Below are positions 56,130 through 58,357 of a DNA stretch of 64,000 bases, piece after piece. The stretch covers positions 42,160,001 through 42,224,000 of the forward strand of contig OZ024752.1 in NCBI GenBank assembly GCA_964016885.1. The letters run 5' to 3'. Source of the DNA: Eledone cirrhosa. Taxonomy: Eukaryota. Each line of letters opens with the position of its first letter. The first letter of the stretch is position 1. The notes under the pieces are model-generated. The model was given only the letters and a program-made list of their open reading frames with translations, did not search any database and was not told the DNA's origin. A program made the position numbers and the translations under genes.

Positions 56130-56378
56130 TTAAGCCAGATATGCTTGACAGAAAGAATAATATACTTTGTCTTGAGCACAGCAGCCGTTATATACATCAA
56201 TGTCGTCCATTGCTCGAGCACACAGATAACACAAGCGGTACACATCTTCATCACTCTGACAAAAGTCAGGCCGGGGTATTTTAAACTCCCTCTTCCGGTT
56301 GTGGGGAATGCCCTCGGTCAGATTACATACCACTAGTAACATTGTTATGGCAACAAACAATACCAAAGTAGATCGCAT
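56130..56378 (-). CDS. secreted six-cysteine prepropeptide, 82 aa; candidate CHH/ITP-fold neuropeptide or toxin-like peptide
   Basis: MRSTLVLFVAITMLLVVCNLTEG signal-like N-terminus; IPHNR-KR; mature EFKIPRPDFCQSDEDVYRLCYLCARAMDDIDVYNGCCAQDKVYYSFCQAYLA; acceptor TTTTTTATTTCCAG directly before ATG; AATAAA at 56042-56037. Confidence 0.85.
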   Translation of the reverse strand: MRSTLVLFVAITMLLVVCNLTEGIPHNRKREFKIPRPDFCQSDEDVYRLCYLCARAMDDIDVYNGCCAQDKVYYSFCQAYLA

Positions 56379-56584
56379 CTGGAAATAAAAAATACACAAA
56401 TAAATAATATTTTGTTCACAATTATATAAAGATGTAATTGTTATAACAACTGAATCATAGAATGAACTCTAATAGATAATGAAAACAACCACAAGGATGT
56501 GGTCCCACTGTAATTGCCCCCCATCTCTCTGTATGGTGAACAAATGGGGTCTCACCTGCCCCCCCCCCCACACACACACACAGC

Positions 56585-56775
56585 CCCGGAGGATGGTAAG
56601 GGAGATGCGCTCGAAGAGCCATTCCAACTGGCGAGGCTCACACTTGCGGCTGGCCAGCTCAGCGTCTATAGGGGTGAGCAGGGAGGTAGCCCTAGGGCCA
56701 AGGACAGCAGAAGTCTCCACTTCCAAGGGCACGACAGCAAACCTGTCGGAGAGCGACCGGTACTTATTACAAATA
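56585..56775 (-). mobile_element. CRE-like non-LTR fragment inside the peptide-gene intron
   Basis: KYRSLSDRFAVVPLEVETSAVLGP...WLFERISLTILRG. Confidence 0.7.
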
Positions 56776-57806
56776 AGAACTGGAAAAGAGAGAGGAAAAA
56801 AACCCACACCAGCAGATAATACACACATCTAGAACCACATAAAAGGCAAGCGAAAAGGTTTGGACCAATATATTATATATAAATGTTTTCTACTTTTGGC
56901 ACAAGGCCAGCAATTACCCAGTGCATTACTGGTACTTTATTTTATCGACCCTGTATTGATGAAAGGCCAAGTTAACCTCGGCGAGATTAAAATAAAGTAG
57001 TTGTTTTTTTTCTCGAGGGCATTAAGCAGGAATGCTACGACTTTAATAAGATTTCGCCGGAGATAGATTAGCAAAATTTAATAAGCGGGGGTTGGGAGGG
57101 TTTAGAATAAGAGCAAGGTGGGGGAGGGATCTGAAAAATTAATAAGTGGTGGGCGGGAGGACGTTTATTCGAGACCCGAGAGTATATACTACAACAATCT
57201 TATATTTTTCTTTAAGGCAACAAAAAGGGAGCTCGCTCTGCAATCACGTGGTTTCAGGTCCAATCCTGCTGCGCAACATCTTAAACTTAAAGAACTAAAT
57301 ATGGGTGGTGTGAATTTTCCTTGAATATTTGAGACAGGTGTGTGTTGTTTTTTTGTGTGTTTTTTTTTTTTCTTAACTCTTAACGTCCTGCTCCGTATGA
57401 AACCGCATTACAGGGGCCGATGGTTTCTCTATATGAGTTTAATAAAATTCTATGGCACCCACAAAAGAAAAAAATATATTTTATAAGCAATTTGAAGTAA
57501 CTTATCTCCTCTACCTTATTTTCCTTTTAAACCAGACATAGTAATTTAGATAAGTATTTAGATTTATTATCACCACTAATGTGGATTAGAGGGAGTGTCA
57601 GCCAGAGTATTTGCCAGCGGGTGGGTAGGGGTCATAAACAATAATGTCTTGGGCCTTTAACTGATCATTGAGACGTAGGGGTGTTGAAGGAATTTACGAG
57701 GTGTCTTGTGCATTTGAAGCCTGGTAATGCCCATCTCTCTCCAGGTTTAAGCACAGCTGATTTCTTTCAGAGAAAGAGAGAGTGAGATAAAATTATAGAG
57801 GAAAAA

Positions 57807-58082
57807 TCGACCCCAGTACTGAACTGATACTTTATTTATCGACCTCGAAAGAATAAAAGGCAGTCTACCTCGGAAGGATTTGAACTCAGAGCGCAGAGAG
57901 TCGGAACGAATAACGCAAGGCACTCCATCCGACGTTCTAACGACTCTGGCCTTTGTGACAATTTGTCGCCCTTGTGACAGGCAAATGAGACTAAAACAAT
58001 GGTAGAAGACATGGGAAAAAAAAGCAACGTCGAATAAAATGTCTGGCTCAATGACACAACGCACTGCCGGGAATCGAACCCC
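57807..58082 (-). mobile_element. SINE fragments (family B-like and a second tRNA-like head)
   Basis: Reverse of GAGTTCAAATCC...GTCGATAAATAAAGTATCAG and GGTTCGATTCCCGGC. Confidence 0.6.
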
Positions 58083-58217
58083 TTAGTAAAACCTTAGTAA
58101 AACACTCCTAACTACAAAACCAGGCACCTTCAAGTGCTTAGTATAAAAATACAAAAGAAACTTTAAAATAGAAAAATGATAGAAGCGTTGCTGAAGATAT
58201 GAAAATTTTTTACTTAC

Positions 58218-58333
58218 GTTTCTGTTGAGTCTTGACGGAGTCTTGATCTGAAGCTGAAGATCTGACGATGTACAAATGTGAGTGAGTGAGTGACTTGGAT
58301 GTGGCGGGGCTTTTGTTGAAGTACAAAGACAAT
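58218..58333 (-). other. probable non-coding first exon of the peptide gene
   Basis: Donor AAC/GTAAGT at 58218/58217; Inr-like TCATTG near 58333; unique sequence. Confidence 0.55.
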
Positions 58334-58349
58334 GAGGTATTGATACCCA

Positions 58350-58357
58350 TTTAAATA
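58350..58357 (-). promoter_or_regulatory. TATA-like box TATTTAAA of the peptide gene
   Basis: About 25 bp upstream of the Inr-like motif. Confidence 0.4.

Follow-up and report, generated by a model that had tools for sequence, protein, structure and literature searches.

A single-copy octopus gene encodes a probably secreted six-cysteine peptide of a family shared with annelids and with a predicted CHH-superfamily fold

Introduction

CHH-fold hormones have long been regarded as ecdysozoan, and the locus studied here, a small gene in an octopus genome, raises the question of whether a secreted six-cysteine peptide of a mollusc belongs with them, and whether such a peptide would serve as a hormone or as a salivary toxin. 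The first-pass annotation of the window, by which we mean the whole 64,000-nucleotide stretch of DNA that was analysed, had proposed a spiralian CHH-fold hormone or salivary toxin at this position. The first CHH-like family to be described from spiralians was CHH-DREP, which has two disulfides and whose gene carries a phase-2 intron (Koch et al. 2023, PMC10501145), and a 2026 review describes lophotrochozoan CHH-fold members as usually four-cysteine.

Results

The open reading frame proposed as a small secreted-peptide gene was intact over its 82 codons in both the ORF list of the window and the sequence (Table 1), and it was also the one selected by a family profile built without it. The precursor layout claimed for it, consisting of a signal peptide, a short propeptide, KR and a 52-aa peptide, was borne out by prediction, with a probable signal peptide at residues 1-23, a basic site at R28-K29-R30, and 52 aa remaining after cleavage there. 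Cysteines lie at precursor positions 40, 50, 53, 66, 67 and 77, with one extra Cys in the leader, and their spacing of 9,2,12,0,9 confirms the framework C-x9-C-x2-C-x12-CC-x9-C. The predicted mature peptide is acidic (pI 4.3), and its sequence carries no C-terminal amidation signal.

Motifs for the promoter, non-coding exon, intron and AATAAA signal that had been claimed are present, including a donor GTAAGT from 58217, which matches the consensus, and a pyrimidine-rich acceptor TTTCCAG, the last base of which (56379) adjoins the ATG. At related metagenome loci the precursor lies within one ORF in 12 of 12 cases and CAG stands directly before the likely start in 7 of the 12, which include at least three near-duplicate pairs. 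This recurrence of an acceptor-before-ATG, single-exon layout gives outside support to the gene model. The assignments of the splice junction, the start site and the poly(A) site are putative, being made at the level of motifs. The three contig sets aligned here cover introns and exons equally, with no 58218-56378 joint among the matches listed, and do not bear on splicing; the candidate TATA/Inr reading is the weakest part of the model.

A search of the 3.0-Gb genome found one copy of the gene and no tandem paralogues. The second-best matches (L002, L003 and L035) were weak, with E values of 0.1-0.9; L002 and L003 contain stops, and L035 is low-complexity repeat sequence. A genome-wide DNA pattern for the Cys spacing gave 347,840 matches and was overwhelmed by simple repeats. 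The second haplotype, seen in one of three contig sets, has four coding differences, two of them silent and two conservative (G23A and I24V), and the predicted mature peptide is unchanged in it.

Just upstream of the gene, a 206-bp unit is repeated 3.7 times at 94% identity (59059-59811) and by eye looks like the high-copy elements of the intron. The intronic element at 56846-57017 has a summed contig depth in the millions and is likely a very abundant SINE-like repeat. Elsewhere in the window, a 309-aa open frame at 10109-11038 (+) resembles, as judged by eye, a Tc1/mariner transposase, and the frames at 46694-47569 (-) and 22649-22930 (-), also by eye, resemble the C-terminal end of a LINE reverse transcriptase.

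Table 1. Features of the octopus peptide gene, in positions of the window
Feature	Position	Strand	Evidence
Intact coding sequence within one exon, 82 aa and stop codon	56130..56378	-	sequence, ORF list
Predicted signal peptide, residues 1-23	56310..56378	-	hydropathy peak 2.9; small residues at -3/-1
Residues 24-30, short propeptide with the predicted basic cleavage site RKR at its end	56289..56309	-	sequence
Predicted mature 52-residue peptide, three predicted helices	56133..56288	-	sequence, model
Putative 1,839-nt GT-AG intron with high-copy repeats inside, adjoining start codon	56379..58217	-	motifs; repeat depth
Putative non-coding first exon, no ATG, 5' end approximate	58218..58333	-	consensus donor after exon
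TATA-like motif TATTTAA	58351..58357	-	motif only
AATAAA candidate polyadenylation signal, AT-rich surroundings	56037..56042	-	motif only

The first-pass annotation had let its proposal depend on orthologues, and relatives were found: an exhaustive phmmer search over 1.84 billion representatives gave 19 matches at E<=1e-3, the best of them 67% identical. Together with two profile searches and cluster look-ups, this yielded a set of 40 relatives, many of which are near-duplicates. Organism names were attached to 3 of the 40, one from Lamellibrachia satsuma and two from Owenia fusiformis; none of these three carried a functional name, and no arthropod was named among the family matches from phmmer and the two profile searches. 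Among 41 sequences including the query, the Cys spacing was 9,2,12,0,9 in 35, 8,2,12,0,9 in 4 and 8,2,13,0,9 in 1, and the pattern was missing in one. All 40 pattern-bearing sequences have a Tyr three residues before the CC and an aromatic residue before the last Cys, as the latter had been pointed out for the octopus peptide, and 39 of these 40 end 4-7 residues past the last Cys. The basic cleavage site varies in position across the family and several members are without one, while its RK is kept in P0001, the closest relative.

A reciprocal check, in which a distant member was searched against the genome, returned the octopus locus as its best match (E 2.8e-8). A family profile was built from 28 distant-relative cores, excluding the window peptide and its two closest relatives; of the 1,181 segments that the window gives in six frames, the ORF scored 59.8 bits against it (E 1.2e-17) and the runner-up 5.9 bits. 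Judged by its sequence, the octopus gene is a member of a conserved six-cysteine family common to octopus and annelids. Single-sequence searches of Pfam and of PDB sequences, and a word-based protein search, gave nothing useful; a Hi1a match in the PDB sequence search (E 0.46) was rejected, as it rests on the propeptide. The two Owenia fusiformis proteins, P0017 and P0028, have adjacent accession numbers and lengths of 106 and 107 aa, and may be isoforms or a duplicate. In both, a terminal KGR follows the last helix and may serve as an amidation signal, which the octopus peptide does not have.

The structure of the 52-mer alone was modelled with AlphaFold2 as a single-sequence prediction. The model had a pLDDT of 86.1 and helices at residues 14-27, 30-37 and 41-51, and the three-helix core of the CHH superfamily fold is present in it. 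An all-helical model had been expected by the first-pass annotation, and SLPTX3 structures took the top ranks in the comparisons: centipede SLPTX3 toxins were the best three of five Foldseek matches (TM 0.64-0.71, probability 0.63-0.87, E 1.0-2.2), and in VIA-align over 48,161 chains Ssm1a was 1st (Z 5.5, rmsd 2.5, 45 aligned), Ssm6a 2nd (Z 5.4), MIH 3rd (Z 3.8), Ta1a 7th and CHH-L 14th (Z 2.7). Realignment gave Z 5.5-6.4 and rmsd 1.9-2.5 A over 45-46 residues, SSD609 having Z 6.4 and rmsd 1.9 with 46 aligned. These scores are modest, Z 5-6 being reachable by small helical bundles through a common arrangement according to the VIA-align tool note, and we gave weight to the CHH superfamily because the same superfamily fills the top ranks.

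All HAND and CHH matches by sequence or by Foldseek were individually non-significant (E 0.66-3.3), among them those of the family profile to k-Ssm1a (E 0.66 and 3.3), with five Cys in register. ESM Atlas placed unnamed, mostly arthropod clusters of ~102 residues at the top (0.91-0.93), one set of which, at 0.91, was 11% PF01147, with CHH (0.81) and EH (0.81) lower; the mature part alone reached 0.85 against MIH. A control model of EH was poor (pLDDT 65), and its Foldseek search was uninformative. The peptide is predicted from its model to have a CHH-superfamily, or HAND-like, three-helix fold. The CHH-fold claim stands in so far as the prediction is all-helical and the CHH superfamily is top-ranked, but the closest solved relatives are SLPTX3 HAND toxins, not CHH/ITP.

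CHH-DREP was located in the same genome, on contig C1 (370.99 Mb), while the octopus peptide gene is on C12. Its second exon, behind a phase-2 acceptor, lies at L012:1459-1614 (C1, ~370.996 Mb), and is identical over 51 residues to Octopus bimaculoides CHH-DREP as printed in a PMC10501145 supplement. This identity bears out the apparent cephalopod origin given in the first-pass annotation and indicates that the genome is that of an octopod. The CHH-DREP exon gave no BLAST alignment with the octopus peptide and scored 1.1 bits against the family profile. The suggestion that our peptide might belong to the spiralian CHH family found through cone-snail toxins was therefore dropped, since that family has four Cys, a phase-2 intron and another locus. 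In both peptides the last Cys comes 24 positions after the second one of CxxC, which is a faint hint of relatedness.

An eclosion-hormone-like gene, scoring above the PF04736 cut-off, was found at L033:1414-1695 (-) (C14, ~41.657 Mb). Its acceptor AG adjoins the ATG and the remaining precursor lies in one exon, as in the octopus peptide gene. Because this gene carries CxxC-x12-C too, the motif, which the first-pass annotation had used as one of its clues, is not diagnostic for CHH. Against the family profile the EH-like protein scored -5.6 bits, compared to 60 bits for the window peptide, and the PF04736 profile had no match at the octopus peptide locus. CLCCY, CCWamide and CCRFamide were rejected as names for the peptide, since these have other Cys frameworks (Platynereis and phoronid sequences compared by eye).

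Discussion

We believe that the octopus gene, the sole octopus member of the six-cysteine family shared with annelids and predicted to have the CHH-core fold, likely encodes a secreted endogenous hormone. According to Koch et al., the mature part of signalling peptides is more conserved than the leader, and toxins show the reverse. Between the octopus precursor and P0001, which is one pair, 40 of 52 mature residues (77%) and 8 of 23 leader residues (35%) are identical. This higher conservation of the mature part, together with the single copy, favours a hormone over a toxin. A salivary toxin of the octopus that mimics crustacean CHH, or that blocks ion channels like centipede SLPTX3, is quite unlikely, even though the closest structures are toxins without the fifth helix, the loss of which has been proposed as a step to toxicity, and even though hormone-mimicking salivary toxins are known in octopuses from a survey whose crustacean query list has no CHH/ITP entry. 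The framework is conserved in tube-dwelling annelids, tandem paralogues are absent, and the conservation pattern is the reverse of that of toxins. Since the short C-terminus is common to the whole family, it is not a venom adaptation in octopus. The toxin half of the original proposal is thus disfavoured.

Two further readings concern the fold and its ancestry. The peptide could be a convergent, disulfide-stapled helical peptide that merely resembles CHH/HAND and has another role, such as epithelial, reproductive or defence secretion; the moderate Z-scores, the absence of the CHH intron signature and the want of a significant sequence link to PF01147 would agree with this. However, the fold, the profile alignment with Cys in register and the language-model features all indicate one superfamily, and four of five Cys intervals are the same as in SLPTX3, so that we hold convergence to be unlikely. 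Rather improbable, too, is a reading in which the gene is a paralogue that sits with eclosion hormone inside the CHH/EH superfamily and has EH-like signalling. A relatedness of EH and CHH has been proposed, EH is among the ESM Atlas neighbours, and the EH-like gene of this genome shares both CxxC-x12-C and the acceptor-before-ATG, single-exon layout, but the EH spacing is different (3,2,12,3,11), the scores of the two proteins on the family profile are far apart, and the locus is without a PF04736 match.

If the peptide is an endogenous hormone, signal peptidase would cut after residue 23 and a prohormone convertase would cut at RKR, freeing ~52 residues. Disulfides would pair as C1-C5, C2-C4 and C3-C6, as in SLPTX3 and CHH, which is consistent with the Cys register with k-Ssm1a. 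The peptide would then be released from neurosecretory or gland cells, and would act as an endogenous signal rather than as a toxin. Reviews report that Drosophila ITP acts by way of a membrane guanylyl cyclase and that lobster CHH stimulates a membrane-bound cyclase. By analogy, the route that we favour is a membrane guanylyl cyclase with cGMP signalling that adjusts ion and water balance or metabolism, although we hold it to be possible and short of probable. The alternative would be a GPCR, as for Bombyx ITP, the receptors of which are GPCRs according to reviews.

Searches of the literature and motif searches of neuropeptide supplements, with thin coverage of subscription papers, found no description of the six-cysteine family. 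The supplements searched included PMC8398477, PMC8557429, PMC3890597, PMC6425005 and PMC9839350. We also drew on PMC7560641, PMC13311285, PMC7232367, PMC8541221, PMC2841656, PMC4888303, PMC12607849, 10.64898/2026.02.02.703354 and 10.64898/2026.04.09.716377. The family is apparently a second, previously undescribed CHH-fold signalling family in spiralians, a six-cysteine one reaching from octopus to annelids, after the four-cysteine one added in 2023. It adds an orphan ligand to the neuropeptide sets of molluscs and annelids and provides a direct query for receptor screens.

Comparison with known systems

Arthropod CHH/ITP/MIH peptides (PF01147) and the octopus peptide have in common six Cys, CxxC-x12-C and a helical core (predicted for octopus), and the octopus precursor is predicted to have the type I CHH/ITP layout of signal, precursor-related peptide and dibasic site. 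CHH has Cys at 7, 23, 26, 39, 43 and 52, that is, a spacing of 15,2,12,3,8, compared to which the octopus spacing is equal in two of five intervals. CHH has ~72 residues and the octopus peptide 52, without a fifth helix and without an amidation signal. PF01147 was unmatched, in that Pfam gave no family for the query and 0 of 20 aligned members reached E<=1, and its profile found no locus above cut-off in the genome. In nearly all CHH genes a phase-2 intron lies directly behind the fourth Cys, some nematode genes being without it; no coding intron interrupts the octopus gene or any of the 12 related loci. By its Pfam result, spacing, length and intron, the octopus peptide falls outside the strict CHH/ITP family.

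Eclosion hormone (PF04736) likewise has six Cys with CxxC-x12-C, but its spacing (3,2,12,3,11, range 3,2,12,3,10-11) differs from the octopus 9,2,12,0,9, and there is no similarity beyond the Cys. CHH-DREP resembles the octopus peptide in being spiralian, secreted, predicted to have a CHH/HAND fold and encoded in the same genome. It has four Cys with a spacing of 2,11,11, its peptide directly follows the signal, and its coding sequence is split over two exons by a phase-2 intron, in contrast to the six Cys and the single coding exon of the octopus peptide.

The closest likeness is to the SLPTX3 toxins of centipedes (mu-SLPTX3-Ssm2a/Ssm6a, kappa-SLPTX3-Ssm1a and SSD609). Their Cys stand at 5,15,18,31,32,41 and 9,19,22,35,36,45, paired 1-5, 2-4 and 3-6 according to a review, so that the spacing 9,2,12,0 with its adjacent CC equals that of the octopus peptide and only the last interval differs, being 8 in SLPTX3 and 9 in octopus, leaving four of five equal. 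Both have 46-52 residues and no C-terminal helix (as predicted for octopus), and their folds superpose, on the octopus prediction, at 1.9-2.5 A over 45-46 residues with 17-23% identity. Unlike SLPTX3, the octopus peptide belongs to a mollusc and annelid family with a hormone-like conservation pattern. HAND toxins are held to derive from CHH/ITP by loss of the C-terminal helix (reviews, including on Undheim et al. 2015). Now that a conserved family outside the arthropods is seen to share nearly all of the SLPTX3 spacing as well as the short C-terminal end, SLPTX3 may have arisen from that branch. We tentatively suggest, as a reading with perhaps a one-in-three feel rather than a settled view, that the CHH/eclosion-hormone superfamily has a third old branch extending across protostomes and that SLPTX3 was recruited from this short, CC-bearing branch and not from ITP; the unnamed ~102-residue arthropod clusters of ESM Atlas would then be its arthropod members. 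If this is true, the absent C-terminal helix of SLPTX3 was inherited and is not a weaponising loss. The near-exact match of frameworks makes the accepted origin of these toxins testable by a simple tree.
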